Shown: positions 2,027 through 21,584, numbered from the stretch's first letter. The stretch: 64,000 bases of DNA from a bacterium (GCA_028819345.1 JAPPLW010000059.1:3890-67889); one strand, 5' to 3'. Notes: a model not told the origin generated them from the sequence alone. Program-made: numbers and translations.

Positions 2027-2055
2027 AGACAGTCTTGTAGCAGGCGGCTCGGGAG

Positions 2056-4825: not shown

Positions 4826-5856
4826 CCGCCCGACCGATCCTCGAGGCCCGCGGCCTGGCCAAGACGTTCTCTTCGAGACGCTCGGTGGCGGACGTGGTCT
4901 TCCGGCGGCCCACCGAGGAACTCCAGGCGCTGGAGGACGTCAGCTTTCAGGTGGTGCGGGGGGAGAGCCTGGGGATCGTCGGCGAGTCGGGGTGCGGCAA
5001 GTCCACCCTGGCCCGGTGCCTGGTTGGACTGTACCCGCCCACGTCGGGACAGACGGTCTATGAGGGAGTGGAATTCGAGGGGAAGCGGTCCTTCTCGGAC
5101 CGGAAGAAGATCCAGATCGTATTCCAGGACCCCTACTCGTCATTGAACGCCCGGATGACCATCGGCCAGGCCCTCCGGGAGGTGCTCCGGGTGCACAAGG
5201 TGGTGGCCTCCGACCGGGTGGCCAGCCGGGCGGTGGAACTGTTGGCGCTGGTGGGCCTCGACGCCGACATCGCCAACGTCTATCCCCGCCAGTTGTCGGG
5301 AGGCCAGCGTCAGCGGGTGAACATAGCCCGCGCCCTGGCGGTGGAGCCCGAGGTCCTGATCGCCGATGAGCCGGTCTCCGCACTGGACGTCTCCATCCAG
5401 GCGACGGTCCTGAACCTGCTGGCCTCGCTTCGGGAGCGGCTCGGCCTGACGCTGATCCTCATCGCTCACGACCTGAGCGTGGTGAGGTACCTGTGCGACC
5501 GGGTGGCGGTGATGTACATGGGCCGGATCGTGGAGATCGCCGCCACCGAGGAACTCTTCGAAAACCCCCGCCACCCCTACACCCAGGCGCTTCTTGCGGC
5601 CGCTCCCAGCCTGGAGCGAAAGAGCCGGGACGACGCCCGCTCGATCAGCGGAGACCCTCCCAGCCCCTTCGCCCTGCCGGAGGGATGCCCCTTCCATCCC
5701 CGCTGCCCGATGGCCACCGACCACTGCGCCATGGTTCGGCCTCCCCTTGACGAGGGACCGGGCGAATCAATCCATCGGGCCGCCTGCCACTACGCCTGGG
5801 CGCCGCCCGCCCCCCACCACATCCCGTTGATCCGAGGAGAGGAGAACTTCCGATGA
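4822..5856 (+). CDS. ABC transporter ATP-binding protein (DppF/OppF-like)
   Basis: GTGA overlap at 4822-4825. Walker A GESGCGKST, signature LSGGQRQR, C-terminal Cys-rich extension. Confidence 0.9.
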   Translation: MTARPILEARGLAKTFSSRRSVADVVFRRPTEELQALEDVSFQVVRGESLGIVGESGCGKSTLARCLVGLYPPTSGQTVYEGVEFEGKRSFSDRKKIQIVFQDPYSSLNARMTIGQALREVLRVHKVVASDRVASRAVELLALVGLDADIANVYPRQLSGGQRQRVNIARALAVEPEVLIADEPVSALDVSIQATVLNLLASLRERLGLTLILIAHDLSVVRYLCDRVAVMYMGRIVEIAATEELFENPRHPYTQALLAAAPSLERKSRDDARSISGDPPSPFALPEGCPFHPRCPMATDHCAMVRPPLDEGPGESIHRAACHYAWAPPAPHHIPLIRGEENFR

Positions 5857-7055
5857 GCGTGACCATTCTGCAAGCAAGGCAGGTCCTGACCGGCGGGGAC
5901 GATCCGCCCATTCACCGCGGCGGGGTCCGGGTGAGGGGGTCGAAGATCGTGGCCGTGGGCCGGGCCGATGACATCCGAGAGCCCGAGGACGAGGTTGTGG
6001 ATTTCGGCGAGGCAACGCTGCTTCCGGGGCTGATCGACTGCCACGAGCACCTCTCGGGGCACGACCGTTACGCGATCGGCGACCCGAGCGTGGTGGAGCC
6101 GCCCATGATGTACGCGCTGGTGGGCGTCTACCACACTCGCCGGCTGGTGCGCATCGGGGTGACGACCGCCCGGATCCCCGGAGCGCCGGGACACATCGAC
6201 CTGATGATCCGACGGGCCATCCGGGAGGGCTACCTGCTAGGTCCCAAGATGGTGTGCGCGGGTGAGTTGATCGTCATGACCGGCGGGCACGGCTCGATGT
6301 GGGGGGCGGAGGTGGACGGACCCTGGGAAGCCAAGAAGGCCGCCCGCGCCCAGCTCAAAGCCGGCGCCGACTTTGTGAAGATCGTCGCCTCGGGAGGGGT
6401 GGGGATCACTCGAGAGGGAGAGCTTCCCTCCCAGCCGGAGTTGTCAGTGGTGGAGATGGCCGCCGCGGCGGATGCGGTGCATTCGGCCGACCGAAGGATC
6501 ACCGCCCATGCCGACGGGGTTCCCGGAATCTCAAATGCCCTGGAGGCTGGGGTGGACTGCATCGAGCACGGGATCTACCTGAACGCCGACCATGCCAAGT
6601 TCATGGCCGACAACGGCGTTGCGTTGGTGCCCACCCTCTCCACCATGCAGGGCATCTATCACCACGGGATCGAGTACGGGATGCCCGAGACCTGGATCCC
6701 GATCGCCGAGGCGATCCTCGAACCTCACCTCGAGTCATTCCGCCACGCCCTCGAGGCGGGGGTCCACTTCGCGGCCGGCACCGACGGGTTCGGCGACATC
6801 GTGGACGAGATGATCATCTTCACCACCTTCGGGATCGACAACTACCGGGCCATCCAGTCGGCCACCCGGGACGCCGCGTTGGTCATTTCACCGCGTCCCG
6901 ACTTCGGGGTGCTGGAGGAGGGCAAGGCCGCCGACATTATCGCGGTGGACGGCGACCCGCTGGACGATCTGAATGCTCTCAGGTCGGTGGAGTTCGTAAT
7001 GATCGACGGAGAGGTGCTGGTCTCCAACGGTTCCGTAAGAGAGGAAGTGAGCTAA
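5853..7055 (+). CDS. Metal-dependent amidohydrolase family protein
   Basis: ATGA overlap with upstream ATPase. Sequence LPGLIDCHEHL and the overall fold point to the amidohydrolase superfamily (imidazolonepropionase/Xaa-Pro dipeptidase-like). Confidence 0.75.
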   Translation: MSVTILQARQVLTGGDDPPIHRGGVRVRGSKIVAVGRADDIREPEDEVVDFGEATLLPGLIDCHEHLSGHDRYAIGDPSVVEPPMMYALVGVYHTRRLVRIGVTTARIPGAPGHIDLMIRRAIREGYLLGPKMVCAGELIVMTGGHGSMWGAEVDGPWEAKKAARAQLKAGADFVKIVASGGVGITREGELPSQPELSVVEMAAAADAVHSADRRITAHADGVPGISNALEAGVDCIEHGIYLNADHAKFMADNGVALVPTLSTMQGIYHHGIEYGMPETWIPIAEAILEPHLESFRHALEAGVHFAAGTDGFGDIVDEMIIFTTFGIDNYRAIQSATRDAALVISPRPDFGVLEEGKAADIIAVDGDPLDDLNALRSVEFVMIDGEVLVSNGSVREEVS

Positions 7056-8059
7056 TGGATGTGGGATTTCCCGAGTTGTTCCAGGCCGCATTGGAATCGG
7101 TGCGGCGCTGTCAGGTCACCGCGGATGAGCGGGTGGTCGTTTACACCGATTCGGAGAAGAACCCGGCGATGGTCGAAGCTTGGTACGCCGCCGCCCTGGC
7201 CACCGGCGCCGACGTCACCCTGATCCGGGCCACCGCCCGGTTCCCCGAGACCGATCCCCCCGAGGTGGCTCTCACCGCCATGAGATCGGCCGACATCATC
7301 TTCGACCTCGCCTCCAACACCTGGCTGTACGCGCCCGGACTGCCTCCCATCATCGAAGCGGGCGCCCGGATCCTGCAGGTCCTGGTGCCGGAGCGTTCCA
7401 TCATCGACCGGCCCCCCACCGACGACATCCTGTGGAGAGCCGACGTCTCAGAGGCGTTGACCGCCGACACGCAGGAGATCCACATCACCAGTCCCCTGGG
7501 GACCGACCTGCGGGGCAGGCGGGGCGACAGCCCGTGGCATGCCCAGCGGGGATACGTGTGGGAGTCGCGCCAGTGGGACAGCTACGGGGTGTGCATGATC
7601 AACTGCGCGCCGGAGGTCGAGACGGTGGAGGGAGTGGTCTACTTCAACGGTCCGATGATCCTCTTCCCCCAGTACTGCTACACCACCAAGACCCCGATCC
7701 GAGTCGAGGTGGAAGCGGGACGGCTCGTCCACATCGACACCGACCACGAGGAGGCGAGGACATTCGACCGCTGGATCCGCCAGTTCGACGACCCCAACCT
7801 GTACCTGGTGGCCCATCTCGGCTTCGGATTCGACCCGAGAGCCGACCTGGAGTCGTTCGACCTGGCCGCCTGGGAGAGCTACTACGGGGGCGTGGTGGTG
7901 GCCTTCGGAGCAAACACGGCCCCCCAACTAGACGGAACCATAAGCGCCACGGGCCACATGGACGGCATCCTCCTGGAAGCCAACCTCACCCTCGACGGCG
8001 TCCCCATCATCGAGAACGGCGAATTCGTGGAATCAACCGGCCTGCGCTCACCCGGCTGA
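7055..8059 (+). CDS. Conserved protein, possibly M29 aminopeptidase / NicX-like family
   Basis: TAATG overlap with upstream stop. The 334 aa ORF continues cleanly past the frame that overlaps the amidohydrolase. Family assignment is a tentative recognition only. Confidence 0.35.
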   Translation: MDVGFPELFQAALESVRRCQVTADERVVVYTDSEKNPAMVEAWYAAALATGADVTLIRATARFPETDPPEVALTAMRSADIIFDLASNTWLYAPGLPPIIEAGARILQVLVPERSIIDRPPTDDILWRADVSEALTADTQEIHITSPLGTDLRGRRGDSPWHAQRGYVWESRQWDSYGVCMINCAPEVETVEGVVYFNGPMILFPQYCYTTKTPIRVEVEAGRLVHIDTDHEEARTFDRWIRQFDDPNLYLVAHLGFGFDPRADLESFDLAAWESYYGGVVVAFGANTAPQLDGTISATGHMDGILLEANLTLDGVPIIENGEFVESTGLRSPG

Positions 8060-8129: not shown

Positions 8130-8570
8130 GTGTCAAGACTGAAGGCAGCCACGGACGGATCTGCGGACAAACCCGGACCGGGGGCGGGCGGCTGGGCGTG
8201 GGTCACCAGCGAAGGTACCTGGGCGTGGGGAAACCGTCCACGAACAGACAACATCCGCATGGAATTGACCGCGGTGCTGAAGCTGCTCAAATCGCATCCC
8301 GACCGGCCGCTCCTGATCCACGCGGAAGCACCGGTGTTCAACACCTTCACTGATTGGATCCACCGGTGGCGAGTGAACGGCATGCGAAGAGCCAACGGCC
8401 GCAAACCCAAGAACATCGACCTGATAAACCAGATCGATGCGCTCCTGGTCGGGGAAGACCACATCAGGTGGAAACTGGTAAGGGCCAGCGGCGGTGATCG
8501 CCTCAACGAGAGCGCAGACCGGCTGGCCGGGTTCGCGCGATCTCAAGCCAGACTCGGGCACTGGCGCTGA
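8130..8570 (+). CDS. rnhA: Ribonuclease HI
   Basis: TDGSADKPGPGAGGWAWV...ELTAVLKLL...NESADRLA pattern places the conserved RNase H1 acidic residues correctly. About 146 aa. GTG start likely. Confidence 0.7.
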   Translation: MSRLKAATDGSADKPGPGAGGWAWVTSEGTWAWGNRPRTDNIRMELTAVLKLLKSHPDRPLLIHAEAPVFNTFTDWIHRWRVNGMRRANGRKPKNIDLINQIDALLVGEDHIRWKLVRASGGDRLNESADRLAGFARSQARLGHWR

Positions 8571-8735: not shown

Positions 8736-9266
8736 TTAGCCAGGAAGAAAGTCCGGAGGACGCCGCCGCGCCGGCGCCTCGATTAGTTCGATGATCACGC
8801 CCAGTTCCGGCTCGGTGTCGATATAGGCGAATCCGCCGTCTCCGTCCAACCCGTGCCCGAAGCCTGCCATCAGTATCTCGTACCCAGCCTCTTGCATTGC
8901 CTCTACCTCGGTCTCGATCGAGTCGACCAGGATCCCCAGGTGGTGGAGACCCTCCCCCCGCCGCTCCAGCCAATCCTCGTAGATGTTGGGACCGGCCAGC
9001 GACTGGACCAACTCGATCTGCGGATTGGCGCCGGTCCAGGCGACCTTCATCCGATAATCAGCCGGCTTGCCCAGGTAGCTGAGGGAACGGACGTTGTCGG
9101 ATGAGTAGACGTATCCCCTCCAACCCTCGAGACCCCACATCGACCCGTACGTGTCCAGGGCGCGATCGATGTCCCTGACGACTATGCCGATCTGCCCCAC
9201 CGGCTTCCCACCGAGGATGGGGACCTCCCGGCGAACTGTCTCACCGAGCCCACTTCCGGATTTCAC
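8736..9266 (-). CDS. VOC family protein (glyoxalase / methylmalonyl-CoA epimerase-like)
   Basis: 176 aa with a paired beta-alpha-beta-beta-beta module pattern, HHLGILVDS motif. Confidence 0.6.
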   Translation of the reverse strand: MKSGSGLGETVRREVPILGGKPVGQIGIVVRDIDRALDTYGSMWGLEGWRGYVYSSDNVRSLSYLGKPADYRMKVAWTGANPQIELVQSLAGPNIYEDWLERRGEGLHHLGILVDSIETEVEAMQEAGYEILMAGFGHGLDGDGGFAYIDTEPELGVIIELIEAPARRRPPDFLPG

Positions 9267-9522
9267 CGACGCCTGCCCTTCCGACCAGTGCCGAGCCCAA
9301 GGCCACCGGTAGCGGATACCGTCCGGTCACACTCCCGGCATGCGGACCACGAGGACCGAAACCAGGGTATTCGATATGAGGTCATGGGAAAATCGTGTGC
9401 CTGCGTCGACGGGGGTGCTTGTGTTCGGAACTTTACAAGACCGTGCTGGAGAGGCGGCGGAGAAGTGGCGTCAGTAGAGTCTCGAGTGGGCACAGTTATC
9501 CATGCCGACCTGGGGGAATGCA

Positions 9523-10824
9523 ATGCGGCTCGATGTCGTGAACGGGCATGTCGTCACAGGTGACGGGCGTTCGTACCTGGAGGACGCCTCCGTCACGACC
9601 GAAGACGGATTGATCACCGGCCTTCACAGGATCCGGCACCTCCCCTACCGGGTGTACTCGCATCGGGTCCTCGATGCCCGGGGCGGTCTCATACTGCCCG
9701 GGCTCATGAATATCCACTCCCACGTGGTGAGCTTCGGTCCGCTCTGTCCGGGGCTTCCGAGAGAGGCCGCTCCCAAAGAGAGGATTCTCGCCAATCTCGA
9801 CACCCACCTGCTCCAGGGGACGACCACCGTGCTCAGCCTGGACGGCTTTGCCCTGCCCTTCGAGAACGACGCCATCAACAAACTGCATCCGGTCAACGTC
9901 AAGATGGCGACTCTCCATACGCCGAAAAACGTCGCCTCCGGAGAGATGGGCGGCAACCGGCTCCCCCCTCATCACCGCGGTTTCACCGCCGAGGAGGCTG
10001 TGTCAGCGGGTGCGGTGGCCATGGGAGAAGTGGGCTCCTGGGCGACCACCGGGGCAACCTACGAGAAGAACCTGCGGCTGGAGCGGCCGGTCTCGGTGAG
10101 CGACGCACTTGCTCTGGATGCCGCTTACCTGTCGGGAGACGACCTCGCAATGGTTCGCATCATCGAGAGAGCAGGTCTCGGACCCATGTCGCTGGATGAG
10201 GCCAAGACGCTGGTGAGGGAAACCAGCGTCGAGCCGATGGCGGTGGCCAAGGAAGCGATACTGGAAACCATCGACTTCGCGCCAAGGCTGGGGATACCCG
10301 CCCTGTGCCACACCGAACCGGACACGTACGACGTTGTCCGGGAGGTCGCCCGGGAGATCGGCGATAAGTTGGTGGCGCTGCACGTCAACTACCACGCCGC
10401 GGCCGAGGAGGCGGTCGGGATGGCGAGGGAAGTCAGGGGTCACGGGGGTTTCGTGGAGGTGATCACCGCCGACCACTTCGGCGCAGGCCAGCTGGAGCCG
10501 AGTCCGGATACGGCCTTCGCCCTGCTTTCGGAAGGGCTGGTGGATGTGCTGTCCACCGACTATTCGGGGGGCTATCACGACGCCATCCTGTTGTTCATCC
10601 AGAAGGCCGTGGAACACGGGGCGGTCTCTCTCCCCCAGGCCGTGAGACTGGCCACCAGTTCCCCCGCCAGCATCATTCCCGGCCTGGCTCCCCGGAAGGG
10701 CCTCATCGAGCCGGGATACGTCGCCGACCTGGTGGTGGTGGACAGAGACGACATCACCCGCGTGAGAACCGTCATCGTCGGCGGTCGGATCGTGGTTGAG
10801 GACGGACGCCGGGTAGACCGCTAA
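9523..10824 (+). CDS. Amidohydrolase family protein (cytosine/creatinine deaminase-like)
   Basis: LPGLMNIHSHV motif. ORF opens at 9502; the ATG at 9523 has the better upstream G-rich SD. Sits divergent from mmsA and upstream of hyuAB. Confidence 0.7.
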   Translation: MRLDVVNGHVVTGDGRSYLEDASVTTEDGLITGLHRIRHLPYRVYSHRVLDARGGLILPGLMNIHSHVVSFGPLCPGLPREAAPKERILANLDTHLLQGTTTVLSLDGFALPFENDAINKLHPVNVKMATLHTPKNVASGEMGGNRLPPHHRGFTAEEAVSAGAVAMGEVGSWATTGATYEKNLRLERPVSVSDALALDAAYLSGDDLAMVRIIERAGLGPMSLDEAKTLVRETSVEPMAVAKEAILETIDFAPRLGIPALCHTEPDTYDVVREVAREIGDKLVALHVNYHAAAEEAVGMAREVRGHGGFVEVITADHFGAGQLEPSPDTAFALLSEGLVDVLSTDYSGGYHDAILLFIQKAVEHGAVSLPQAVRLATSSPASIIPGLAPRKGLIEPGYVADLVVVDRDDITRVRTVIVGGRIVVEDGRRVDR

Positions 10825-10854
10825 AGCACCCCGAGCTCGTTGCCGGCCTCCGGC

Positions 10855-12348
10855 CTAGTCGCTCCTGGGGAAACCGAGGTCGACTCCCCGGTGCATCGGG
10901 TCCGCCCACCGGCTGGTTATGACCTTCTGTCGGGTGTAGAAGTGCACGCCCTCGGGCCCGTAGATGGCGTGGGTCCCGAAGATCGAGTTCTTCCAGCCGC
11001 CGAAGGAGTAGAACGACAGCGGGACCGGTATCGGCACGTTGATGCCGACCATGCCCACCTGTACCTCGTTCTGGAACTTGCGGGCGGCGCCGCCGTCGCT
11101 GGTGAACACGGCCGTCCCGTTCCCGAACGGGTTGTCGTTGATCAACTCGATGGCCTCGCCGTAGGAGTCGAGCCGCACCGTGGAGAGGACCGGCCCGAAG
11201 ATCTCGTCGGTGTACACCGACATCTCGGGGGTGACCTGGTCGAACAGCGTGGGGCCGAGGAAGAAGCCGTCCTCGTGGCCGTCGACTTGGAAGTCCCGGC
11301 CGTCGACCACCAGCTTGGCGCCTGCCTCCTCCCCGGCGTCGACGTATCCGGCGACCCGGTCCTTGGCTTCCCTGGTGATGAGGGGTCCCATCTCGGATCC
11401 CTCGTCGAAACCGGGCGCCACCTTGAGGTCGGCGATCCGCTCCTCTATCTTCGGAATCAGGGCGTCGGCGGCGTCGCCGACGGTGACGACCACCGATATC
11501 GCCATGCACCGTTCCCCGGCGGCTCCGTACCCGGCGGAGACCGCCGAGTCGGCGGCGAGGTCCATGTCGGCGTCGGGCAGGACAACCATGTGGTTCTTGG
11601 CCCCGCCCAGGGCCTGCACCCGCTTGCCGTGCCTGGTCCCCGTCTCGTACACGTAGCGAGCGATCGGCGTGGAACCGACGAAGGAGACGGCGGCGACATC
11701 CGGGTGGGTCAAAAGCGCGTCAACCGCCACCTTGTCGCCGTGAACCACGTTGAACACCCCGTCCGGAAGCCCGGCCTCGGCGAACAACTCCGCCGCCAGA
11801 TTCGACGCTGAAGGGTCTTTCTCAGACGGCTTCAAGATGAAAGTGTTGCCGCAGGCGATGGCTATCGGATACATCCACATGGGTACCATGGTCGGGAAGT
11901 TGAACGGTGTTATGCCCGCCACGACACCCAGTGGCTGTCGTATGGTGAACGTGTCGACACCGGTGGAGACCTGCTCGGAGTACTCCCCTTTGAGGAGATG
12001 GGCGATGTTGCAGGCGAACTCGACGACTTCGAGGCCTCGCTGAACCTCGCCGAGGGCATCGTCGAGCGTCTTCCCGTGCTCCGCGGTGAGCAGCCTCGCC
12101 ATGTCGAGGCGGCGGGAGGCCACCAACTCCCGGAACGCAAACATGATGTTCTGGCGTCTGGTTACCGGAGACCGGCCCCACTCGGCGAACGCCTCTCTGG
12201 CAGTCGACACTGCGGCGTCGACCTCTGCCTCGTCAGCGAACGCCACAGCAGCCGTCTGCTGCCCGGTGGCCGGGTTGTAGACCGGTCCCGTCCTGTCCCA
12301 GGTCCCCGTCCAGGGACTGCCCCCGATCCAATGGGTGATCGTGTCCAT
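10855..12348 (-). CDS. mmsA: CoA-acylating methylmalonate/malonate-semialdehyde dehydrogenase
   Basis: ALDH superfamily. N-terminus MDTITHWIGG and motifs GITPFNFP, FILKPSEKDP are MmsA-like. Real start taken at the ATG at 12348 (GGAGGAGA SD upstream) rather than the ORF-track start at 12495. Confidence 0.85.
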   Translation of the reverse strand: MDTITHWIGGSPWTGTWDRTGPVYNPATGQQTAAVAFADEAEVDAAVSTAREAFAEWGRSPVTRRQNIMFAFRELVASRRLDMARLLTAEHGKTLDDALGEVQRGLEVVEFACNIAHLLKGEYSEQVSTGVDTFTIRQPLGVVAGITPFNFPTMVPMWMYPIAIACGNTFILKPSEKDPSASNLAAELFAEAGLPDGVFNVVHGDKVAVDALLTHPDVAAVSFVGSTPIARYVYETGTRHGKRVQALGGAKNHMVVLPDADMDLAADSAVSAGYGAAGERCMAISVVVTVGDAADALIPKIEERIADLKVAPGFDEGSEMGPLITREAKDRVAGYVDAGEEAGAKLVVDGRDFQVDGHEDGFFLGPTLFDQVTPEMSVYTDEIFGPVLSTVRLDSYGEAIELINDNPFGNGTAVFTSDGGAARKFQNEVQVGMVGINVPIPVPLSFYSFGGWKNSIFGTHAIYGPEGVHFYTRQKVITSRWADPMHRGVDLGFPRSD

Positions 12349-12644
12349 CACTCGTCTCCTCCGTTCAAGAGCTCGGGCGCCCGACGAAGCGACCATGTGC
12401 AACCATGCCGTGCCGCGTTCCCGCTCGACGGCGTCGGGCCCAGGAATTATATCAATGCTGCCGGGTGGCCGGCCCCGGCATCTCCCCGACGACACCCGTC
12501 ACGGACCCTGTTGTGATATTTTGTCACATTCCTAAGATACGGCCCTATGTCAATTCGATCCCCCGGACCCGACCGGCGCCCTGGAGTGGCCGTCGACGGA
12601 GTAATGGCTACCGGCTGTGAGGCGAATCCGAGGCTGACTTACGC

Positions 12645-14756
12645 ATGAGCGCTTCCGGCCTTCGGCCGCCCGGCGAGGCACGAATCGGCGTTGACGTGGG
12701 AGGGACGTTCACCGATGTGGTGGTCACCAGCACGGGCGGGGAAATCTATACCTACAAACTGCTGTCGACCCCCAGGGACTTCAGCGAAGGCGTGGTCGAT
12801 GGGATCCGCGAGATCATCGAGTCACACGGCGTCGAGCCGGCCGACACCCGAGATGTGGTGCATGGAAGCACCGTGGCGACCAATGCCATCCTGGAACGAA
12901 AGGGCGCTTTCACGGGTCTTCTGACCACGGCAGGGTTCGCCGACGTGCTGGAATTGCGAAGACTGCGGGTCCCGAAGTTGTACGACGTGACCTGGCAGAA
13001 GCCCGAGCCGCTGGTGGAACGCTCGCGGCGCCTGGAGGTGATCGAACGAGTGGGCGTTGACGGCAAGGTGGTCACAGCCCTGGATCTCGACGACGCCCGG
13101 CAGAAGGTGGAGGCGCTCGTCGACCTCGGGGTGGAGTCGATCGCGGTGAGCCTCATCCACTCCTACGCCAATCCCTCGCACGAGACTGCCATCGGGGAGA
13201 TGCTCGCCAGTGAGCACCCCGAAGTGTGGGCCTCGCTCTCCCACCGGGTACTGCCCGTGATCCGGGAGTACGAGAGGACCAGCACGACCGTGCTGAACGC
13301 CTACGTCAGGCCGGTGGTGGCCTCCTATCTCGAAGCGCTCCGGGGAAAGCTCGACGGCCTGGACGTGACGGCGCCCTTGCTGATCATGCAGTCCAACGGC
13401 GGGGTCATGACCAGCGAGGCGGCAGCCGAGCGGCCGGCATACGTCGTCGAGTCAGGTCCGGCGGCGGGGGTGATCGCCTCGAGCGGGCTGGCCCGGTCGT
13501 TGGGGGTGGACAACGCCATCACCTTCGACATGGGCGGCACCACCGCCAAGACCGCATTGGTGGAAGATGGCGAACCGCATTTCACCGCCGAGTTCGAGGT
13601 GGCATCGGCGATGTCGGCCGGCAGTCGCTTGCGGAGCGGAGGAGGCTATGCACTGAGCGTGCCCTTCATCGACCTCGCCGAGGTGGGAGCGGGAGGCGGC
13701 AGCATCGTTTGGATCGACTCCGCCGGCGCTCCCAAGGTCGGTCCCTCCTCGGCCGGCGCCGACCCCGGTCCGGTGTGTTACGGGAAGGGAGGCGCCGAGC
13801 CCACGGTCACCGACGCCAACCTGTTGCTGGGGTATCTGAACCCCGCGGGGCTCTTGGACGGAGCGGTCAAGCTGGATGTGGAAGGAGCCCGGGCAGCGTT
13901 CGAGGAGAAGGTCGCCGGTCCGCTGGGCCTGGACATCCCGTTCGCCGCCTACGGGGCTCACCTGATCGCCAACGCCAGCATGATCCGGGCGATCAAGTCG
14001 GTCTCGGTCCAGCGGGGCCGGGATCCCCGCGACTTCACGCTGATCGCCTTTGGGGGGAGCGGTCCGGTCCATGCGATGGGGATCGCCAGGGAGTTGGGGA
14101 TCCGCCGGGTGATAGTGCCTCCCCAGCCCGGGGTGTTCTCCGCAGTCGGATTGCTGGAGGCCCGGCTGGAATTCCATGCCAAGAAGACCTTCCTCCGGCG
14201 CACCGCCGAACTGTCCCGGCGGGAACTCCAATCGGAGATCCGGGAACTGGAGGCCCAGGCGCGGGAAGGAGTGGGACATGGGAGCCTTCATACCGTCTCC
14301 TTCGAATTCGAGCCCTGGGTGGAGATGCGATACGTCGGCCAGGGCTTCGAGCTACCCGTGAGACTTCCGGGGTTCACCGACGACTGGACGTCATGGGTGG
14401 AGGAACTGGACCGGGCGTTCGGCGAGCAGCACCTCAACACTTACGGCCATGTGACCAACAACGCAACGGAGATCGTGCAACTGCTGGTGGTGATACGCGA
14501 ACAGAATCCGGTGGGCGTCCCGGTCGGCAGGCGCCCCGACTCGCAACCGGATGAGTCGAACAGGAGGGAAGTCTTCTTCGGCGGTGAGATCGGACTCCTG
14601 TCCACGCCGGTGCTCCGCCGCGGCGACCTCACGGCTACCCCCCGCCAGGCGCCGATGATCATTGAGGACTACGACGCCACCACGGTGGTGCCGCCCGGCT
14701 ACCGGGTCTTCCGGGACCGGTCCCAGAGTGTGATCATCGAGGAGGACTCGACATGA
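12645..14756 (+). CDS. hyuA: Hydantoinase/oxoprolinase family protein, subunit A (ATP-dependent)
   Basis: 703 aa. N-terminal ARIGVDVGGTFTDVV is the HyuA/oxoprolinase-A motif. Confidence 0.85.
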   Translation: MSASGLRPPGEARIGVDVGGTFTDVVVTSTGGEIYTYKLLSTPRDFSEGVVDGIREIIESHGVEPADTRDVVHGSTVATNAILERKGAFTGLLTTAGFADVLELRRLRVPKLYDVTWQKPEPLVERSRRLEVIERVGVDGKVVTALDLDDARQKVEALVDLGVESIAVSLIHSYANPSHETAIGEMLASEHPEVWASLSHRVLPVIREYERTSTTVLNAYVRPVVASYLEALRGKLDGLDVTAPLLIMQSNGGVMTSEAAAERPAYVVESGPAAGVIASSGLARSLGVDNAITFDMGGTTAKTALVEDGEPHFTAEFEVASAMSAGSRLRSGGGYALSVPFIDLAEVGAGGGSIVWIDSAGAPKVGPSSAGADPGPVCYGKGGAEPTVTDANLLLGYLNPAGLLDGAVKLDVEGARAAFEEKVAGPLGLDIPFAAYGAHLIANASMIRAIKSVSVQRGRDPRDFTLIAFGGSGPVHAMGIARELGIRRVIVPPQPGVFSAVGLLEARLEFHAKKTFLRRTAELSRRELQSEIRELEAQAREGVGHGSLHTVSFEFEPWVEMRYVGQGFELPVRLPGFTDDWTSWVEELDRAFGEQHLNTYGHVTNNATEIVQLLVVIREQNPVGVPVGRRPDSQPDESNRREVFFGGEIGLLSTPVLRRGDLTATPRQAPMIIEDYDATTVVPPGYRVFRDRSQSVIIEEDST

Positions 14757-16576
14757 CCGCATCGGGTGGAGCAGCCGCCATAGAGCGGGAACTGATCCGC
14801 GAGGGTCTGGCGGCGATATGCGAGGAGATGGCGGTGAGCGTCCTGCGGACTTCCCATTCGGAGACGGTGAAGAGCGCCATGGACTTCTCCACCGCCCTGT
14901 GTGACGAGACCGGGCAGATAATCGCCCAGGGAGTCACGCTTCCCAACCAACTCGGCGCCCTCCCGGAGGCGGTGGCGGCGATTCTGAGGCGTTTTGAGGG
15001 AGATCTCCATCCGGGCGACGTGGCCATGGTCAACGATCCGTTCGACGGCGGCATGCACCTTCCCGACATCTTCGTCGTGCGCCCTGTTTTCTTCGCCTCC
15101 GAGTTCGTGGGACTGGTGGCGACGGTGGCCCACCACGCCGACCTGGGCGGGATGGTGGCCGGGAGCATGTCCCCCTATGCGGAGGAGTGCTTCCAGGAGG
15201 GCCTACGGATCCCGCCGGTGAAGCTGTATTCGCGGGGAAGGCGGGAGGAGGGAGTGTTCGCCCTGCTGGGCGCCAACACCCGGGTGCCGGACATCGTCCT
15301 GGGAGACTTCGACGCGCAACTGGTGGCTTGTGCGACCGGCGTCCAAGCCTTCCACCGGATGATCCGCCGGTACGGATTGGCGGAGTTCAGGGCCCACGTG
15401 GCGGCTCTGTTGGACTACACGGAGATGCTCACCCGCCAGGAGATCAGGACCTTCCCCGAGGGGACCTACTCGTACGTCGACTATCTGGACGACGACGGTG
15501 TCCGCGACGATCCGGTGCCCATCGTCGTCTCCATCGAGATACGCGACGGTGGAGTCACCCTCGACTTCACGGGGAGCTCACCCCAGGTCCGGTCCTCTCT
15601 GAACAACACCCTGTCGTTCACCCATTCGAACACCTACGCGGCGATGCGCGCCCTGCTGCGGTCCGACATTCCCAACAACGCCGGGTTCTTCCGGCCGATA
15701 ACGGTCAAGGCGCCGCGGGGATGCATCCTCAACTGCGTCCTTCCGGCCGCCACCGGGACCCGCGGATTGACCGGTTTCAGGGTGATGGACGCCATCTTCG
15801 GCGCCCTGGCGCCCGCTCTCCCCGACCGGGTGATGGGCGCTTCCGACGGCGGGCTGTCGCTGGTGACGGTGGGAGGGGTGAGACCGGAGGGCGAGCGGTT
15901 CTCGGTGGTGGAACTGATCTCCGGGGCGTGGGGTGGCCAGGCTCTCCAGGACGGGGAGGACGGCGTGCCGAACGTGGGCGCCAATGTGAGCAACATCCCC
16001 GTCGAGATGCTCGAGTCGTCCCTTCCCGTGCGCGTCGATCGCTACGGCTACGTTCCCGACACGGGCGGCGCCGGCCTCCACCGGGGCGGCCTCTCACTCC
16101 AGCGCGAGTACACGTTCCTCCAGGAGTGCGACCTGAGCGTACGCTCCGACCGGGCAACCATCTATCCCTACGGGATCGGCGCCGGAAGGCCCGGAACCCC
16201 ATCATTGAACCTTCTGGGTCCGGATGGCGAGGAGACGCGGATGCCGTCGAAGTTCTCCCAGCGGGTCACGGAAGGGATGCGCCTGATTCATCGCACCGCC
16301 GGCGCCGGCGGTTGGGGAGACCCGCTCTACCGGGACCCGGAGCAAGTCGCAACCGATGTTCACAACGGGATACTGTCAACCGAGCGGGCATTCGCCGAAT
16401 ACGGGGTGGTCCTGATGCCGGATACGGACGAAGTCGACCGGGAAGCCACCGAAACGGAACGGACGGCACGCCGCGCCACGTCTGAAGACGCCACGTCCAC
16501 CCCGATCTCTCCATCGGCCCCGACACCGCTGGAGGACCGCATCAGCGACAAACTAAGAGCGTCTGGGAAGTTCTAG
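14753..16576 (+). CDS. hyuB: Hydantoinase/oxoprolinase family protein, subunit B
   Basis: ATGA overlap with hyuA. 607 aa with HyuB-type sequence (DPFDGGMHLPD...). Confidence 0.85.
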   Translation: MTASGGAAAIERELIREGLAAICEEMAVSVLRTSHSETVKSAMDFSTALCDETGQIIAQGVTLPNQLGALPEAVAAILRRFEGDLHPGDVAMVNDPFDGGMHLPDIFVVRPVFFASEFVGLVATVAHHADLGGMVAGSMSPYAEECFQEGLRIPPVKLYSRGRREEGVFALLGANTRVPDIVLGDFDAQLVACATGVQAFHRMIRRYGLAEFRAHVAALLDYTEMLTRQEIRTFPEGTYSYVDYLDDDGVRDDPVPIVVSIEIRDGGVTLDFTGSSPQVRSSLNNTLSFTHSNTYAAMRALLRSDIPNNAGFFRPITVKAPRGCILNCVLPAATGTRGLTGFRVMDAIFGALAPALPDRVMGASDGGLSLVTVGGVRPEGERFSVVELISGAWGGQALQDGEDGVPNVGANVSNIPVEMLESSLPVRVDRYGYVPDTGGAGLHRGGLSLQREYTFLQECDLSVRSDRATIYPYGIGAGRPGTPSLNLLGPDGEETRMPSKFSQRVTEGMRLIHRTAGAGGWGDPLYRDPEQVATDVHNGILSTERAFAEYGVVLMPDTDEVDREATETERTARRATSEDATSTPISPSAPTPLEDRISDKLRASGKF

Positions 16577-16774
16577 CCCCATCGTCGGGAAGGCGCAGGG
16601 ACGACTTGTCCGCTCGCGAAATCATCAAACGGCGGGAACCCTTGCAGCGTCTGATAGGACACCTATAGTGTCGTACGGACGTCGGAGGGAGGACCGCTGA
16701 TGCCTACGACCATTTCCCGGGAGGAAACGCGACGGGAGACAGCTTCTCCATGAGAATCGCGTACCAAGAGGCCA

Positions 16775-16826
16775 TGATGAGTCGCAATATGAGTTAGTAT
16801 GAGTCATTATTGAGTCATCACAGGAG
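16775..16826 (+). promoter_or_regulatory. Putative vapBC promoter/operator: four (A)TGAGT(C/T)A repeats including the 9-bp palindrome ATGAGTCAT, followed by an AGGAG SD
   Basis: Direct repeats at about 10-11 bp phasing immediately upstream of vapB in a lower-GC stretch. This is the typical layout of RHH-antitoxin autoregulatory operators. Confidence 0.45.
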
Positions 16827-16833
16827 TATGATT

Positions 16834-17097
16834 ATGAACCAACTGACCGTGAGGGGATTCGGCGACGAACTGGGCTCAGCGGTGCGTCGTCTGGCAGCTC
16901 GGGAGAGAATCTCTCTGAACCAAGCTGCACTGAGACTGCTGCGGCGGGGCGCCGGACTGGCCGAAGGCGCCGACACGGCAGAAAGGGTGGGGTCTTCCCT
17001 GGATCACCTAATAGGCAACTGGACTCTGGAAGAGGCCGATGAGTTGGATGCCGCGCTGGAAGATTTCGAGACCATCGACGCGGATGCCTGGAAGTGA
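16834..17097 (+). CDS. vapB: Type II antitoxin, RHH/CopG-like (VapB)
   Basis: Small protein MNQLTVRGFGDEL...ISLNQAALRLL. AGGAG lies 7 nt upstream of the ATG at 16834 (the track ORF opens at a TTG at 16810). GTGA overlap with the downstream PIN gene. Confidence 0.7.
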   Translation: MNQLTVRGFGDELGSAVRRLAARERISLNQAALRLLRRGAGLAEGADTAERVGSSLDHLIGNWTLEEADELDAALEDFETIDADAWK

Positions 17098-17492
17098 GGG
17101 TCCTGCTGGACTCCAACGCCTACTCCATGCTCATGCGGGGGCACGGGCAGGTCACCGAACTGGTTAGAAGGGCTGAGGAACTGTTGTTCTCCGCCGTTGT
17201 GGTCGGTGAGCTCCTTTACGGATTCCGGCGCGGATCCCGTTTCCAGCAAAACCTGGCCGACCTTCGCTCCGTCCTCGCCAGCCCGTATTCGTCGTTCGTG
17301 GAGGTGGGATCTGTAACAGCGGACCGCTACTCGCGGATCGCTGCATCCCTGCGGGCCAAGGGGCGTCCTATCCCTACCAACGATGTCTGGATAGCCGCCC
17401 ACACGATGGAGACCGGCGCCGATCTCGTTTCGGCCGATCAACACTTCGGACACATCGACGGCATAGTCTGGATACCGATCCCCGCCACCTAA
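17094..17492 (+). CDS. vapC: Type II toxin, PIN-domain ribonuclease (VapC)
   Basis: MRVLLDSNAY...D...NDVWIAAHT. PIN-domain acidic residues are in place. Overlaps the antitoxin stop. Confidence 0.8.
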   Translation: MRVLLDSNAYSMLMRGHGQVTELVRRAEELLFSAVVVGELLYGFRRGSRFQQNLADLRSVLASPYSSFVEVGSVTADRYSRIAASLRAKGRPIPTNDVWIAAHTMETGADLVSADQHFGHIDGIVWIPIPAT

Positions 17493-17503
17493 CGCCTGCC
17501 CGA

Positions 17504-18616
17504 CTAGCGCATGGGCAGAAGCTGTGCGGGGTTGTTGATGATGATCTGTCTGATCACCTCGTTCGAGATTCCCTTCTTGCGCATGAACGGAACGATGCTC
17601 TCGAGGATGTAGTAGTAGCCGTGGCCGCCGTAGCGGGTCAGCCGGTGTTTGGTGCAGATGTCCTGTGAGATGAGGAGACGAGAGGCCGTGTCGCCCTCCA
17701 GCAGTTTCACCATCCGGTCGAGGCGCTGGCCGTCGCTCGGCATGTCGAAGGGCGTCGCTCCGTAGAACGAGGACTCGTGACCGAAGAGGTCGAACTGGAG
17801 ATAGCTTTCCAGGTCCAGCAACTCCCAGAGGATGCCGATGTCCTGCACCCGGAGATCGAGGTGTCCAAGCACCACCCGGCTCATGTCGGCGCCGGCTCCG
17901 ATCAGGACTTCGGCCACCTCCATCGGGGACCTCTGATCCCGGCCGGTGTGGGTGGTGATCGCCACACCGGTCTCCTTCTGTACCTGGGCTGCGGCAGCCA
18001 GGACTCGTCTTTCTCGCTCATGCAACGGCCAGGTACAGGCGATCTTGATGACCCCTGCCTTGACCGACGTATCTTCCTGGCGACCCTGCCAGTCGTCATG
18101 ACCCTCGGTGGTGATCTTGACGCCGTCCAGGACCTCCGAGCGCATCAGGTCCGCCAACTGTTCTTCGGTCATGTTGTGCATATAAGAAGGGTGGGTATGA
18201 GCGACGTAGAACCCGGTGGACATGATGATGTGGACACCGCTTGCGCGAGAGATCCGCGCCAGGCCGACCGGATCCCGACCTATGCCGGGAGGCGTGACCT
18301 CGACCACGGCGCCACCTCCCCACTCTCGATAGAGCCGCATCTCATCGATGGCCGTGGAGATGTCTCCCAGCAGGAGGTTGTCATGGTGGCGGAAGTAGTT
18401 CCGGCGGATCCAGGCCAGATTGTCAAGGCGGATCGGTTCGAATGCGCGGACCCTCTCGCTGGCGGTTCGGGGTGCCTCGAAGATGCCGGTGACGTCGCAC
18501 AGGATGTGCTCGTGCATCATGGTCGCACCCAGCAGATGGGCGTCCACCTTCCCCAGTACGGTCTGGACCTGCCCGGATGGCGCCTGGCCTGGCGTTTCGC
18601 TCATCGTTTCTCTCAA
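17504..18616 (-). CDS. Phosphotriesterase-related (PTE family) metal-dependent hydrolase
   Basis: HEH motif (MMHEHILCD), TIM-barrel amidohydrolase PTE/Php family, 370 aa. Confidence 0.75.
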   Translation of the reverse strand: MRETMSETPGQAPSGQVQTVLGKVDAHLLGATMMHEHILCDVTGIFEAPRTASERVRAFEPIRLDNLAWIRRNYFRHHDNLLLGDISTAIDEMRLYREWGGGAVVEVTPPGIGRDPVGLARISRASGVHIIMSTGFYVAHTHPSYMHNMTEEQLADLMRSEVLDGVKITTEGHDDWQGRQEDTSVKAGVIKIACTWPLHERERRVLAAAAQVQKETGVAITTHTGRDQRSPMEVAEVLIGAGADMSRVVLGHLDLRVQDIGILWELLDLESYLQFDLFGHESSFYGATPFDMPSDGQRLDRMVKLLEGDTASRLLISQDICTKHRLTRYGGHGYYYILESIVPFMRKKGISNEVIRQIIINNPAQLLPMR

Positions 18617-19767
18617 CCGGACGGAGCGAGGTGGCGCGCCACGTCCTCGAAGGCGGTCTGTATGCGTTCCATCTGCTGGTCATTGTGCACCGCCGAGGCG
18701 ATGAGACGGATTCGCGAAGTCCCCGGAGGGACGTAGGGCGGGAGGACGGCCCGTACGAAGATGCCGTGGTGGATGAGTAGGTCCTCGGCCATCTGGGCCT
18801 TGGAGGCGTCGCCGAACATCACGGGGATTATCGGGTGGACCTTATCAGGCACGGAGAACCCGAGCCGGGTCAATGAAGAGTTGATCGTGACCGCGTTCTC
18901 CCAGAGCCGGTCCAAACGCTCCGGCTCGGACCGCATAACCCGTAGCGCCTCGAGCGCCGCCGCCGCGGCCACCGGAGAGGGGGCGGTCGTGAAAAGGAAC
19001 GTGCGGCACACCTTGCTCAAGTAGCCGATCACGTCCGACGACCCGGTGGCGAAGGCGCCGACGCTGCCCAACGCCTTCCCGAGTGTTCCCACTATCACAT
19101 CGGCTCGGTCAGCCCGTTGGTAATGGCCTGTCGAGCCCTTCCCGCCGGAGCCCAGGACGCCGGTGGCATGAGCGTCGTCCAAAACGAGCATGGCGTCATG
19201 CTTGTCGGCCAGGTCGGCTATCTCGTCCACCGGAGCGAGCGTGCCGTTCATCGAGAAGACACTGTCGGTTACCACCAGGCTCTTTCCGGAAGCCCCATCG
19301 AGTTGGTGACCCAGGTCCTCCGCGTCACAGTGCCGGTAGACCCTTATCTCGGCGCCGCTCAACCTGGCGCCGTCAATGATGCTGGCGTGATTGAGTTCGT
19401 CGCTGCACACGGTATCTCCCCTTCCGGGAAAAGCGGAGACAACCCCCAGGTTGGCCGCGTACCCGGATGCGAACAGGAGCGCTGATTCGGCTGCCTTCAG
19501 ATCCGCCAGTTCCTCCTCGAGTTCTCGATGTATCGCGGTGTCCCCTCCAACGTGGCGGGACGCCCGGGCTCCCGCTCCGAAGGTCGTCAGGGCGGCCTGT
19601 GCGGCAGCGATGACCCTGGGATCGGAAGCCAGGCCGAGGTAATCGTTCAGCCCAAGGGCGATGTGGGTGCGTCCCGCATGGTGGATCTCGCCGGGCCGGA
19701 CTACGTCGGAGGCGGGATCGGACGGCGGCCAGACGGCGGCCTGATCGGTAATGCGGTCCCGAATCAT
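18613..19767 (-). CDS. PLP-dependent alpha-oxoamine synthase (2-amino-3-ketobutyrate CoA ligase / 8-amino-7-oxononanoate synthase family)
   Basis: Class-II aminotransferase fold. SDELNHASIIDG and SMNGT motifs are typical of Kbl/BioF. 4-nt overlap with the PTE-family gene. Confidence 0.8.
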   Translation of the reverse strand: MIRDRITDQAAVWPPSDPASDVVRPGEIHHAGRTHIALGLNDYLGLASDPRVIAAAQAALTTFGAGARASRHVGGDTAIHRELEEELADLKAAESALLFASGYAANLGVVSAFPGRGDTVCSDELNHASIIDGARLSGAEIRVYRHCDAEDLGHQLDGASGKSLVVTDSVFSMNGTLAPVDEIADLADKHDAMLVLDDAHATGVLGSGGKGSTGHYQRADRADVIVGTLGKALGSVGAFATGSSDVIGYLSKVCRTFLFTTAPSPVAAAAALEALRVMRSEPERLDRLWENAVTINSSLTRLGFSVPDKVHPIIPVMFGDASKAQMAEDLLIHHGIFVRAVLPPYVPPGTSRIRLIASAVHNDQQMERIQTAFEDVARHLAPSG

Positions 19768-19852: not shown

Positions 19853-21418
19853 TCACCTTCGCAGCACCCGCCCGGGCCGGGTCCCCGAGAGCCTACCGGC
19901 CAGCATCACGGGCTTCCCGTTGACCAGCACGTGCTCCATTCCCTCAGCCAACACATTCGGCTCGTACCTGGTTGCCTTTTCGCGGAAAACCGCCGGGTCG
20001 AATACTGCGACGTCGGCGAAGGCCTTCGGTCTCAGCACGCCGCGGTCGGAGAGGCCGAGGCGGTCGGCCGGAAGGCCGGACAGTCGGCGTACCGCTTCGC
20101 TCGGTGAGAGGAATCCCTCCGGGCCGGCAGAGAAGTTGTAGAAGTAGGAGGCCCAGGTGTATGCACCGTGGAACGTACCTCCCGCAAGGGGACCGTCGGG
20201 CGCCATGGTGGTGGCGTCGGAGGCCGGCATAGCCAGCGGGTGGGCGAAAGCCCTCCGCTGCTGGTCGGCGCTGTGACAGTCGATCAGGACCATCAGGGAG
20301 CCCATGGTCTCGATCGCTCCCAGCAACAGGTCGTAGATGCAGTCCAGTGCCTCCTGTCCCCGCTCGGCGGCGATCGATCCGATCGACCGGCGGCCGTAGT
20401 CGGGATAGGCGTCATGGTCCAGCAATTCGATACGCTCCCAGTCGCCGCCTGCGCTGAGGATGCTTCGGAAGTCCTTCATCTCCCGGCGTGCGTCGCTGCT
20501 TCGGAGCACGGAAGCGAGTCCGTCGACACCGCCGGCCATCGCCCATGGGGGAAGCACCGAGTAGAGATAGGTGAACCCGAACAGGCGGGTGTGCACGTCG
20601 AATGCGATGTCCAGGCCCTCATGGCGGGCCTCGTCGACCATTTCCAGGCATTGTTCCATCTCGGCGTCGCCGCTTCGGGGAACCAGGTGGGAGACCTGGA
20701 GCCTCACCCCGGCGGCCCTGGCGGTCCTGATCGCCTCGGCCACCCCCTCGGGCGCGCCGGCGTCACGGTAGCGGGCATGGCAGACGTACAGGTCGTCCCG
20801 CTCGGCGAGCGGAGCGCACAGCTTGGTGACCTCCGACTCGGAAGCGCCGGCCTCGGTTGCGTACTCGAGGCCGGTCGAGAGGCCCCAAGCGCCCTCTTCC
20901 AGCGCGGTGGCGAGAAGTCGGGCCATGCGGTCCAGCTCCCCTTCCGTTGACAGCCGGTCGGTCAGGCCCACTTCGGCCAGGCGGAGTTGACCATGGGGGA
21001 CCATGCTCATGACGTTCAGGGCCGGCTCCGCCTGCTCGAGCCGGGAGAAGTAGCCCGAGGCGGAGTCCCAATCGAGGGGGACCGACTCCGAGTAGCCGTA
21101 TATCGCCTTCAGGGCGAGTTCGCGGTCCCGGATGGGAAAGCATCCATGGCCGCAGTTGCCGACCACCTCCGTGGTGACTCCCTGGTGGATGGCGCTGACT
21201 GCCCGGGGGTCGGCCAGGAGGGTGTAGTCGGAATGGCTGTGGATGTCGATGAATCCCGGCGTCACGAACAGTCCCGTGGCGTCCAGTTCCTCACCCTGGC
21301 GTGAATCCAGGTCCCCTATCGCGGCGATACGTTCGCCAACGATGCCTACATCGGCCCGCCGGGGATCACCGCCGGTTCCGTCCAGTACGGTGCCGCCCCG
21401 AATGATGTAGTCAAACAT
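19853..21418 (-). CDS. D-aminoacylase-type amidohydrolase (N-acyl-D-amino-acid deacylase family)
   Basis: MFDYIIRGGTVLDG...TPGFIDIHSHSD. 521 aa, D-aminoacylase-like architecture. Confidence 0.75.
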   Translation of the reverse strand: MFDYIIRGGTVLDGTGGDPRRADVGIVGERIAAIGDLDSRQGEELDATGLFVTPGFIDIHSHSDYTLLADPRAVSAIHQGVTTEVVGNCGHGCFPIRDRELALKAIYGYSESVPLDWDSASGYFSRLEQAEPALNVMSMVPHGQLRLAEVGLTDRLSTEGELDRMARLLATALEEGAWGLSTGLEYATEAGASESEVTKLCAPLAERDDLYVCHARYRDAGAPEGVAEAIRTARAAGVRLQVSHLVPRSGDAEMEQCLEMVDEARHEGLDIAFDVHTRLFGFTYLYSVLPPWAMAGGVDGLASVLRSSDARREMKDFRSILSAGGDWERIELLDHDAYPDYGRRSIGSIAAERGQEALDCIYDLLLGAIETMGSLMVLIDCHSADQQRRAFAHPLAMPASDATTMAPDGPLAGGTFHGAYTWASYFYNFSAGPEGFLSPSEAVRRLSGLPADRLGLSDRGVLRPKAFADVAVFDPAVFREKATRYEPNVLAEGMEHVLVNGKPVMLAGRLSGTRPGRVLRR

Positions 21419-21584
21419 GTCCCGGTGAATGCCTTCGAGTCAAGTCTTCAAGTGGCCGGTCTTGCAACTGATAACGGCGCTGTCATGTAGGTGGGAGGCG
21501 CCGAATCGTCGTCGGGTAAGGGGCAAAAATATCGCTCCACCCCCTGACCGCGGCAGGGGTGCGTGGCTACCATGGCTGATATAT

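Follow-up and report, generated by a model that had tools for sequence, protein, structure and literature searches.

Layout of the hyuAB locus

The locus described here lies on a 64,000-nucleotide stretch of bacterial DNA (GCA_028819345.1, JAPPLW010000059.1:3890-67889; hereafter the window, GC content ~65%) and centres on hyuA and hyuB, which are predicted to encode the two subunits of an ATP-dependent cyclic-amide hydrolase. A genome scan placed the window among Acidimicrobiia metagenome-assembled genomes, and isolate names such as RHO1, Plut and OM1 hint at a sponge or coral source. Four genes occupy the interval 9523-16576: amh9523 (9523-10824, plus strand), an open reading frame (ORF) for a 433-amino-acid amidohydrolase-superfamily protein with Pfam Amidohydro_1 and Amidohydro_3 matches; mmsA (10855-12348, minus strand), assigned by TIGR01722 to the CoA-acylating (methyl)malonate-semialdehyde dehydrogenases; hyuA (12645-14756, plus strand), for an ATP-binding subunit of 703 amino acids; and hyuB (14753-16576, plus strand), for a metal-site subunit of 607 amino acids. 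Reading frames were chosen by GC content at the third codon position, which is 0.80-0.86 for all four ORFs, as in real genes, and mmsA (0.86) has native-looking codon usage.

The stop codon of hyuA overlaps the start codon of hyuB in an ATGA read directly in the sequence at 14753-14756, through which the two genes are predicted to be translationally coupled. Genes amh9523 and mmsA converge across a 30-bp gap, and mmsA and hyuA diverge from a spacer of 296 bp (12349-12644). An earlier reading made from the sequence alone (the sequence-only reading) had described this overlap and a divergent intergenic region of about 300 bp, both of which hold. It had also placed the amidohydrolase directly upstream of hyuA and hyuB in one operon. 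In the window, mmsA separates amh9523 from hyuA on the minus strand, and therefore no amidohydrolase-hyuA-hyuB operon is possible; the interval consists of three transcription units, amh9523 (plus), mmsA (minus) and hyuA-hyuB (plus), which appear to be separate and to have been brought together recently. The genes, overlap, spacer and palindrome of that reading are thus real; its operon structure and, as described below, its identification of a deaminase do not stand.

Gene order among close relatives

Conservation was assessed in 13 close loci from Acidimicrobiia (L001-L013), whose HyuA proteins are 87-97% identical. All 13 have hyuAB; in seven, amh9523 is found upstream of hyuA at a distance of no more than 8 kb, and it immediately adjoins hyuA (<260 bp) in three (L006, L009 and L010), where the gaps of 164-254 bp still hold a separate hyuA promoter unit. 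The upstream genes are entirely different in L002-L004, L008 and L011. A gene for MmsA occurs at the window position in one of the 13, the nearest relative L001, and beside hyuAB in none of eight relatives at 51-71% HyuA identity. A tblastn search for mmsA remnants in the close loci that lack the gene found none, and we therefore reject an ancestral mmsA that was later lost; the pattern points to a lineage-specific, recent insertion of mmsA between amh9523 and hyuA.

The mmsA product scores 743.9 bits on TIGR01722 (cut-off 448.5) and is by this family score a bona fide MmsA; in relation to hyuAB, we see it as a bystander, or at best as a gene recruited recently. The sequence-only reading had the divergent mmsA take the carbon skeleton to a CoA ester, a role at odds with an adjacency confined to the window and L001. 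The established creatinine pathway gives sarcosine and glycine, no (methyl)malonate semialdehyde and so no substrate for MmsA. The enzyme could in principle take the product of a class-III aminotransferase encoded further downstream, if beta-alanine or beta-aminoisobutyrate is that enzyme's substrate.

The hyuAB promoter unit

The mmsA-hyuA spacer falls into two parts. Positions 12349-12506 align with L001 alone and seem to have come in with mmsA. Positions 12507-12644 (plus strand) are the sole non-coding stretch common to the 13 close loci and form a conserved hyuAB promoter/leader unit: upstream conservation begins ~140 bp before the hyuA start (window ~12507) in all 13, and sequences further upstream are unrelated apart from L001. 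A perfect palindrome of 17 bp, TGTGATATTTTGTCACA, lies at 12512-12528. The 64 kb contain no second copy, even with three mismatches allowed (0.01 occurrences expected by chance), and 12 of the 13 close loci have the palindrome at a distance of 133-137 bp from hyuA, on its upstream side, L007 having a one-base variant. Since the palindrome sits inside the ~140 bp that move with hyuA whatever gene is upstream, a candidate operator at this site would belong to hyuAB and not be shared with mmsA. What the sequence-only reading had seen in the divergent spacer is accordingly a real, conserved palindrome and not an operator common to mmsA and hyuA; we consider it a conserved regulatory candidate of hyuAB. 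Within the same unit, TCCTAAGATAC resembles a -10 element.

The rearrangements among the 13 relatives all break just upstream of the palindrome (~12507, at about -140) and yield at least five unrelated upstream contexts, a pattern in which the edge of the hyuAB promoter appears to behave as a recombination boundary. Searches for other signals gave little: an Rfam search of 9000-17600 (E<=1) returned no match, and a terminator scan of 10700-12800 returned one terminator-like site, inside mmsA and at chance level. A riboswitch was rejected, because the 13-locus consensus fold of the hyuA leader reaches only -3.8 kcal/mol with almost no covariation.

The HyuAB enzyme

HyuA matches PF05378 (Hydant_A_N, 175 bits), PF01968 (Hydantoinase_A, 324 bits) and PF19278 (Hydant_A_C, 23 bits), and HyuB matches PF02538 (Hydantoinase_B, 566 bits). 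The ATP-binding motifs DxGGTxTD, DxGGT and GxxPGP of the A subunit, as set out for caprolactamase (PMC8453981), are kept in HyuA as D17-VGGTFTD, D295-MGGT and G371-ADPGP. HyuB residues D44, H102 and H127 align with CapB D41, H99 and H124, and D105 aligns with CapB D101 in the same HxxD motif (the CapB numbering being one off there in our reconstruction); this Asp/His metal site is essential by mutagenesis in CapB. With ATP motifs and metal site intact, HyuAB is very probably active, and domains and motifs together mark it as an apparently intact two-subunit ATP-dependent enzyme of the hydantoinase/oxoprolinase type, as the sequence-only reading had proposed.

The best PDB match of both subunits is 7hk5/9h03 (458 bits for A and 308 bits for B; 39% identity for HyuA and 33% for HyuB), a fused protein labelled N-methylhydantoinase by its depositors; a literature search on PDB 7hk5 returned nothing relevant on organism or proven activity. 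Homologues of HyuA are likewise named 'N-methylhydantoinase A' in KEGG-style annotation. Identity to caprolactamase (6yra) is 34% for HyuA and 33% for HyuB, and the closest NCBIfam models are those of caprolactamase (NF050156 and NF050157), with 513.2 and 286.3 bits against cut-offs of 1000. On these scores HyuAB is not a caprolactamase equivalog; the lactamase route that the sequence-only reading named as an alternative is unproven, though fitting the class-III aminotransferase gene at 26342-27682. Acetone and acetophenone carboxylases (5svb, 5m45 and 5l9w) are homologous to both subunits, and membership of that group was rejected on low similarity (48-106 bits for HyuB), NCBIfam scores far below cut-offs and the lack of an extra subunit gene beside hyuAB.

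Phylogenetic placement, named as a check in the sequence-only reading, was obtained in part: in a neighbour-joining tree of 90 HyuA sequences, without support values and with neither a Pseudomonas putida 77 N-methylhydantoinase nor an OPLAH sequence among them, the clade of the window HyuA excludes both 7hk5 and CapA. There, 7hk5 groups with L020, L023, L024, L027 and L038, and CapA groups only with the second HyuA copy of L027 (L027b), on a distant branch.

Comparison with characterized systems places the window enzyme beside several and inside none of them. N-methylhydantoinases (EC 3.5.2.14; P. putida 77, the fused HyuB of Corynebacterium glutamicum ATCC 14067, and 7hk5/9h03) have the same HyuA/HyuB domains and presumably share ATP-dependent ring opening with the window HyuAB, whose subunits are separate and not fused as in 7hk5/9h03. 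CapAB of P. jessenii (6yra) and the OplBA lactamase of P. putida KT2440 are likewise two-subunit enzymes with conserved ATP-binding aspartates and Zn-site residues; a further likeness to the CapAB type is the presence of a class-III aminotransferase and an aldehyde dehydrogenase in the window neighbourhood, whereas the order is B-A in capBA (PMC8453981) and A-B in the window. HyuABC of Pseudomonas sp. NS671 follows a two-step logic, in which ATP-dependent HyuAB opens a hydantoin to an N-carbamoyl amino acid, from which another hydrolase then frees the amino acid (PMC8453981).

The upstream amidohydrolase

The sequence-only reading took amh9523 for a cytosine/creatinine-deaminase-like amidohydrolase. 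Its Pfam Amidohydro_1/Amidohydro_3 match is confined to the C-terminal part, and its NCBIfam matches are weak, partial and of superfamily level, the best being to the C-terminal part of PhnM. A PDB sequence search (E<=0.01) retrieved hydantoinases, NagA and isoaspartyl dipeptidase, with cytosine deaminase absent from the matches at that threshold, and BLASTP against Escherichia coli CodA gave a non-significant alignment of 19 residues around the HxH motif (E=0.07). An AlphaFold2 model (pLDDT 93) has dihydroorotase, isoaspartyl dipeptidase, D-hydantoinase and allantoinase as its top Foldseek folds, at 14-19% identity. Among conserved metal ligands, H67, E169, H263 and H287 are invariant and H65 and D346 are >=90% conserved, a pattern that fits a Glu-bridged binuclear centre, as opposed to the mononuclear deaminase type. 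A deaminase identity is thus supported neither by the sequence matches nor by the predicted fold, which resembles dihydroorotases and dipeptidases.

With 138 homologues at E<=1e-10 among 5.8 billion proteins, the amh9523 family is small and uncharacterized. Three homologues were examined in context: those at 58% and 64% identity adjoin genes for alpha/beta-hydrolases (Abhydrolase_1), one of them also lying near a NicX-like gene; the third, at 50% identity, is without comparable neighbours; and none of the three has an orthologous HyuAB beside it. An apparent linkage in L092, where an amh9523 homologue lies 6 kb from HyuAB genes, was rejected, as the HyuA there, at 41% identity, belongs to a different subfamily. 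We regard amh9523 as its own transcription unit, with no demonstrated partnership with hyuAB.

Downstream partners of hyuAB

Conserved neighbours of hyuAB lie downstream. The neighbourhoods were surveyed through Pfam-annotated surroundings of HyuA relatives at 51-89% identity and BLAST detection over all fetched loci. Foremost is a gene at 19853-21418 (minus strand) for a D-aminoacylase-like amidohydrolase of 521 amino acids (hereafter Dan-like; Pfam Amidohydro_3), whose best PDB matches are the N-acyl-D-glutamate deacylase 3gip (E=6.5e-58) and then the D-aminoacylase 1m7j. A Dan-like gene neighbours hyuAB in 10 of 13 loci at 87-97% HyuA identity (downstream), in all eight at 51-71% and in one of 148 at <=50%. 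A metagenome scan with the clade alignment relied on overly generic patterns, returned mostly relatives at <=50%, and served only as a negative control for this linkage. The HyuA proteins with a Dan-like neighbour form one clade (by neighbour-joining, without support values), and the Dan-like gene appears to be the partner that this HyuAB clade has kept most strictly. The order is co-directional hyuA-hyuB-Dan in L083, L084, L086 and L094, and hyuA-Dan-hyuB in L085 and L088.

Other neighbours recur less strictly. A phosphotriesterase-family (PTE) hydrolase is encoded at 17504-18616 (minus strand; Pfam PTE, 233 bits), with PTE genes also near hyuAB in L082, L083, L084, L085, L087 and L094, and a BioF/Kbl-like alpha-oxoamine synthase, a PLP enzyme, at 18613-19767 (minus strand; Aminotran_1_2, below the bioF and glycine C-acetyltransferase cut-offs), with orthologues of 43-54% identity in L082, L084 and L094. 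Beyond the Dan-like gene follows a plus-strand block known by family assignment: a Peripla_BP_4 binding protein (21667-22782), a permease (22919-23950), an ABC ATPase (~23950-24738), an amidase (24767-26338), the class-III aminotransferase (26342-27682) and a GntR/FCD regulator (27712-28380). In L082 (HyuA 70% identical), binding protein, permease, ATPase and amidase genes stand directly upstream of hyuA; class-III aminotransferase genes lie near the clade in L083, L084, L085, L086, L087 and L094; and GntR/FCD genes adjoin hyuA in L082, L083 and L086. The window GntR protein is 47% identical to that of L082 and 31-36% identical to those encoded directly upstream of hyuA in L083 and L086. Taken together, the functional island most likely spans ~12.5-28.4 kb and excludes amh9523 and mmsA.

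Within this region, a vapBC-like pair is inserted between hyuB and the PTE gene: an ORF for a 95-amino-acid antitoxin (16810-17097, plus strand) is overlapped by 4 bp by the gene for a 132-amino-acid toxin (17094-17492, plus strand; PIN domain, 53 bits). Among relatives the hyuB-PTE gap varies from ~0.1 to 2.9 kb, which makes it a further hot spot of insertion.

A second palindrome, TGTTACACAAT-GCAT-ATTGTGCAACA, with 10/11 matching arms, lies at 21584-21609 in the divergent spacer between the Dan-like and binding-protein genes. It is identical in L001 and L002, is unlike the hyuA palindrome in sequence, and is a candidate operator for both flanking operons.

The nearest HyuAB relatives without a Dan-like partner, L014 and L015 (46-48% identity), are flanked by genes for TctC (TTT) or DctPQM (TRAP) carboxylate transporters, with a LysR gene in L015; these surroundings suggest a carboxylated cyclic amide as their substrate.

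Substrate of HyuAB

A clue to the substrate comes from the gene order of L084 (5410-15439) and L094 (5277-15415), whose HyuA proteins are 59% identical to that of the window: soxB-soxD-soxA-soxG-hyuA-hyuB-Dan form one co-directional array with gaps of 38-62 bp, and the encoded SoxA includes a folate-binding GCV_T domain, typical of heterotetrameric sarcosine oxidase. Elsewhere in the clade, L088 has a gene for a DAO-family oxidase nearby, and a creatininase-family gene lies 8 kb away in L086. L094 comes from a Chloroflexota assembly and L084 is a metagenome contig; both also have a divergent block with BioF/Kbl-like, SBP_bac_5, PTE and PepX genes.

In the known creatinine route, the N-carbamoylsarcosine amidase CshA is of the isochorismatase type and is encoded divergently from the fused hyuB in C. 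glutamicum (PMC8864220). Neither of the known partners of N-methylhydantoinase, a CodA-type deaminase and CshA, was found among the window ORFs scanned; the window HyuAB has a Dan-like partner instead. A tblastn search of the window with CodA found nothing below E=2. A CodA-like deaminase gene stands beside hyuA in one of ~170 fetched HyuAB loci, L059 (1446-2681) from Nocardioidaceae, and L059 and the related Nocardioides-type loci L052-L057 and L066 also have an amidase gene upstream; loci of the L059 type may be closer than the window to the textbook creatinine cluster. Sponge symbionts have been reported as creatinine degraders on gene annotation (PMC6742649), and annotation-based papers were all that a literature search on Acidimicrobiia or sponge hydantoinases and on alternative enzymes for N-carbamoylsarcosine turned up.

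The creatinine/N-methylhydantoin route of the sequence-only reading therefore fares unevenly: its canonical genes are absent from the 64 kb, and indirect support for it comes from the soxBDAG-hyuAB-Dan operon of L084 and L094. An N-substituted, N-methylhydantoin-like hydantoin is our leading single candidate for the substrate, as yet unproven, and a lactam, an oxoproline derivative and a cyclic peptide remain as alternatives.

A model of the locus and its alternatives

We favour, as a probable though by no means secure explanation, that the interval joins three independent units only recently brought together, that hyuAB encodes an ATP-dependent cyclic-amide hydrolase with its own promoter and operator, that its real partners lie downstream, the Dan-like enzyme first among them, and that mmsA is a bystander. 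HyuAB would be expressed from its ~140-bp promoter/leader with the 17-bp palindromic operator, the likely repressor being the GntR/FCD regulator. HyuA would bind ATP and the HyuB metal site would open the ring amide, so that the first step would convert the cyclic amide with ATP into an N-carbamoyl- or N-acyl-amino acid; in the second, the Dan-like enzyme would strip the acyl or carbamoyl group to leave a free amino acid, which would then be oxidized or transaminated. This logic resembles that of NS671 as it has been described, not by sequence comparison, with the Amidohydro_3 Dan-like protein of the window in the position of HyuC. In the sister subclade with the soxBDAG operon, the amino acid would probably be sarcosine or another N-methyl amino acid, because hyuA, hyuB and the Dan-like gene lie in that operon there, and a Kbl-like glycine-using enzyme would be sensible downstream of sarcosine. 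Further partners after the Dan-like enzyme would be the PTE-like hydrolase, the BioF/Kbl-like enzyme and the ABC transporter-amidase-aminotransferase-GntR block.

Several observations weigh against this model. In the window the Dan-like gene is convergent with hyuAB and not co-transcribed with it, the toxin-antitoxin pair standing between them. No promoter matched in a strict sigma-70 scan of 10700-12800, and assigning the GntR protein to this operator is guesswork. The scanned ORFs of the window include no gene of the sox, creatininase, CodA or isochorismatase type. In other relatives the module is accompanied by genes for a class-III aminotransferase, MR_MLE, MlrC or PepX instead of sox, so the substrate may differ between subclades. 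The HyuA tree that delimits the clade carries no support values and takes in neither the P. putida 77 N-methylhydantoinase nor an OPLAH-type 5-oxoprolinase, and we know of no enzyme activity for any member of the clade.

More tentatively, and with doubts that outweigh our confidence, we suggest that HyuAB and the Dan-like enzyme make up an undescribed, monophyletic two-enzyme module present in Acidimicrobiia, Chloroflexota and others. It would be either a non-canonical route from N-methylhydantoin through N-carbamoylsarcosine to sarcosine, in which an Amidohydro_3 enzyme replaces the isochorismatase-type amidase and which sponge symbionts would use on host creatinine, or the opener of a cyclic amide new to the characterized family.

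An alternative explanation is that HyuAB opens an omega-lactam to an omega-amino acid, which the class-III aminotransferase converts to a semialdehyde and MmsA or another dehydrogenase oxidizes, as for caprolactam and valerolactam. CapA and CapB are indeed the closest NCBIfam models, the ATP and Zn residues of CapAB are conserved, a class-III aminotransferase recurs near the clade and mmsA adjoins hyuA in the window, but we consider this explanation unlikely because the model scores fall so far below their cut-offs, identity is 33-34% and CapA sits on a distant branch. It also leaves no role for the strictly conserved Dan-like partner and calls on an mmsA that is not conserved here, and the substrates of MmsA would imply a four-membered beta-lactam precursor, chemically unusual for the family.

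We give still less credence to cyclic dipeptides, that is, to a HyuAB that opens a diketopiperazine-like or other peptide-derived cyclic amide and leaves dipeptidase-like hydrolases to finish the breakdown. Peptide-related genes are certainly at hand: the window has an Opp/Dpp-type ABC transporter (281-5856), an Xaa-Pro-dipeptidase-like amidohydrolase (5853-7055) and a NicX/M29-like ORF, and relatives carry PepX/S15, MlrC, M20/M28 peptidase and SBP_bac_5 genes. However, the window SBP_bac_5 protein shares only 26-28% identity with its counterparts in relatives, on which ground the transporter was rejected as part of the module, and the upstream peptide block is not conserved beside hyuAB in L002-L004, L008 and L011. 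We know of no HyuAB enzyme that opens diketopiperazines.

The arrangement closest to the sequence-only reading, in which all four genes form one creatinine unit with amh9523 as creatinine deaminase, HyuAB as N-methylhydantoinase and mmsA handling the carbon skeleton, is in our judgement very unlikely. It can draw on the N-methylhydantoinase names given to HyuA homologues and to the best PDB match, on the annotation-based reports of creatinine degradation by sponge symbionts (PMC6742649) and on the three close loci with amh9523 directly upstream of hyuA. Against it, mmsA breaks the supposed operon from the opposite strand; amh9523 is without similarity to CodA and has ligands of the Glu-bridged binuclear type and a dihydroorotase/dipeptidase-like fold; amh9523 and mmsA are unlinked to the HyuAB clade beyond genus-level relatives; no N-carbamoylsarcosine amidase of known type was found in the scanned window ORFs; and the products of the pathway offer mmsA nothing to act on.

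Least probable is an OplAH-type 5-oxoprolinase, or an enzyme for a carboxylated lactam such as 5-oxo-D-proline, that feeds glutamate metabolism together with the N-acyl-D-glutamate-deacylase-like enzyme. In its favour, 5-oxoprolinases belong to the family (PMC8453981), the Dan-like protein has such a deacylase as its best PDB match and the sister loci L014 and L015 pair HyuAB with carboxylate transporters, but within the clade itself the transporters are ABC systems for peptides or sugars by type, and the sox linkage is left unexplained.

Other genes of the window

Downstream of the transporter at 281-5856, the gene for the Xaa-Pro-dipeptidase-like amidohydrolase, which scores 258 bits (cut-off 500), precedes a 333-amino-acid ORF without a Pfam match, the two together covering 5853-8059; the L081 homologue of the latter ORF is recorded as PF26233 NicX, and in L091 an amh9523 homologue, too, has a linked NicX-like gene. 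An RNase H gene at 8130-8570 stands among the catabolic hydrolase genes and is 61-68% identical in relatives, against ~95% for the flanking genes. PEP_hydrolase-like and UPF0261 genes at 34617-36708, beside a gene for an Oxidored_FMN/Pyr_redox_2 fusion (36704-38716), form an uncharacterized trio unrelated to hyuAB.

Implications

The locus is an ordinary, uncharacterized catabolic island, and its HyuAB belongs to an uncharacterized subfamily of a known kind of enzyme, defined by the Dan-like partner. 'N-methylhydantoinase' is the routine annotation of HyuA and HyuB genes, which are then taken as evidence of creatinine use in metagenomes from sponges and soil; we caution that both this label and the genes nearby can be misleading. 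If the module were shown to process N-methylhydantoin, such inferences of creatinine use would stand on firmer ground; if it acts on another substrate, it would add a new substrate to the family, of relevance to lactam and nylon-monomer biocatalysis.

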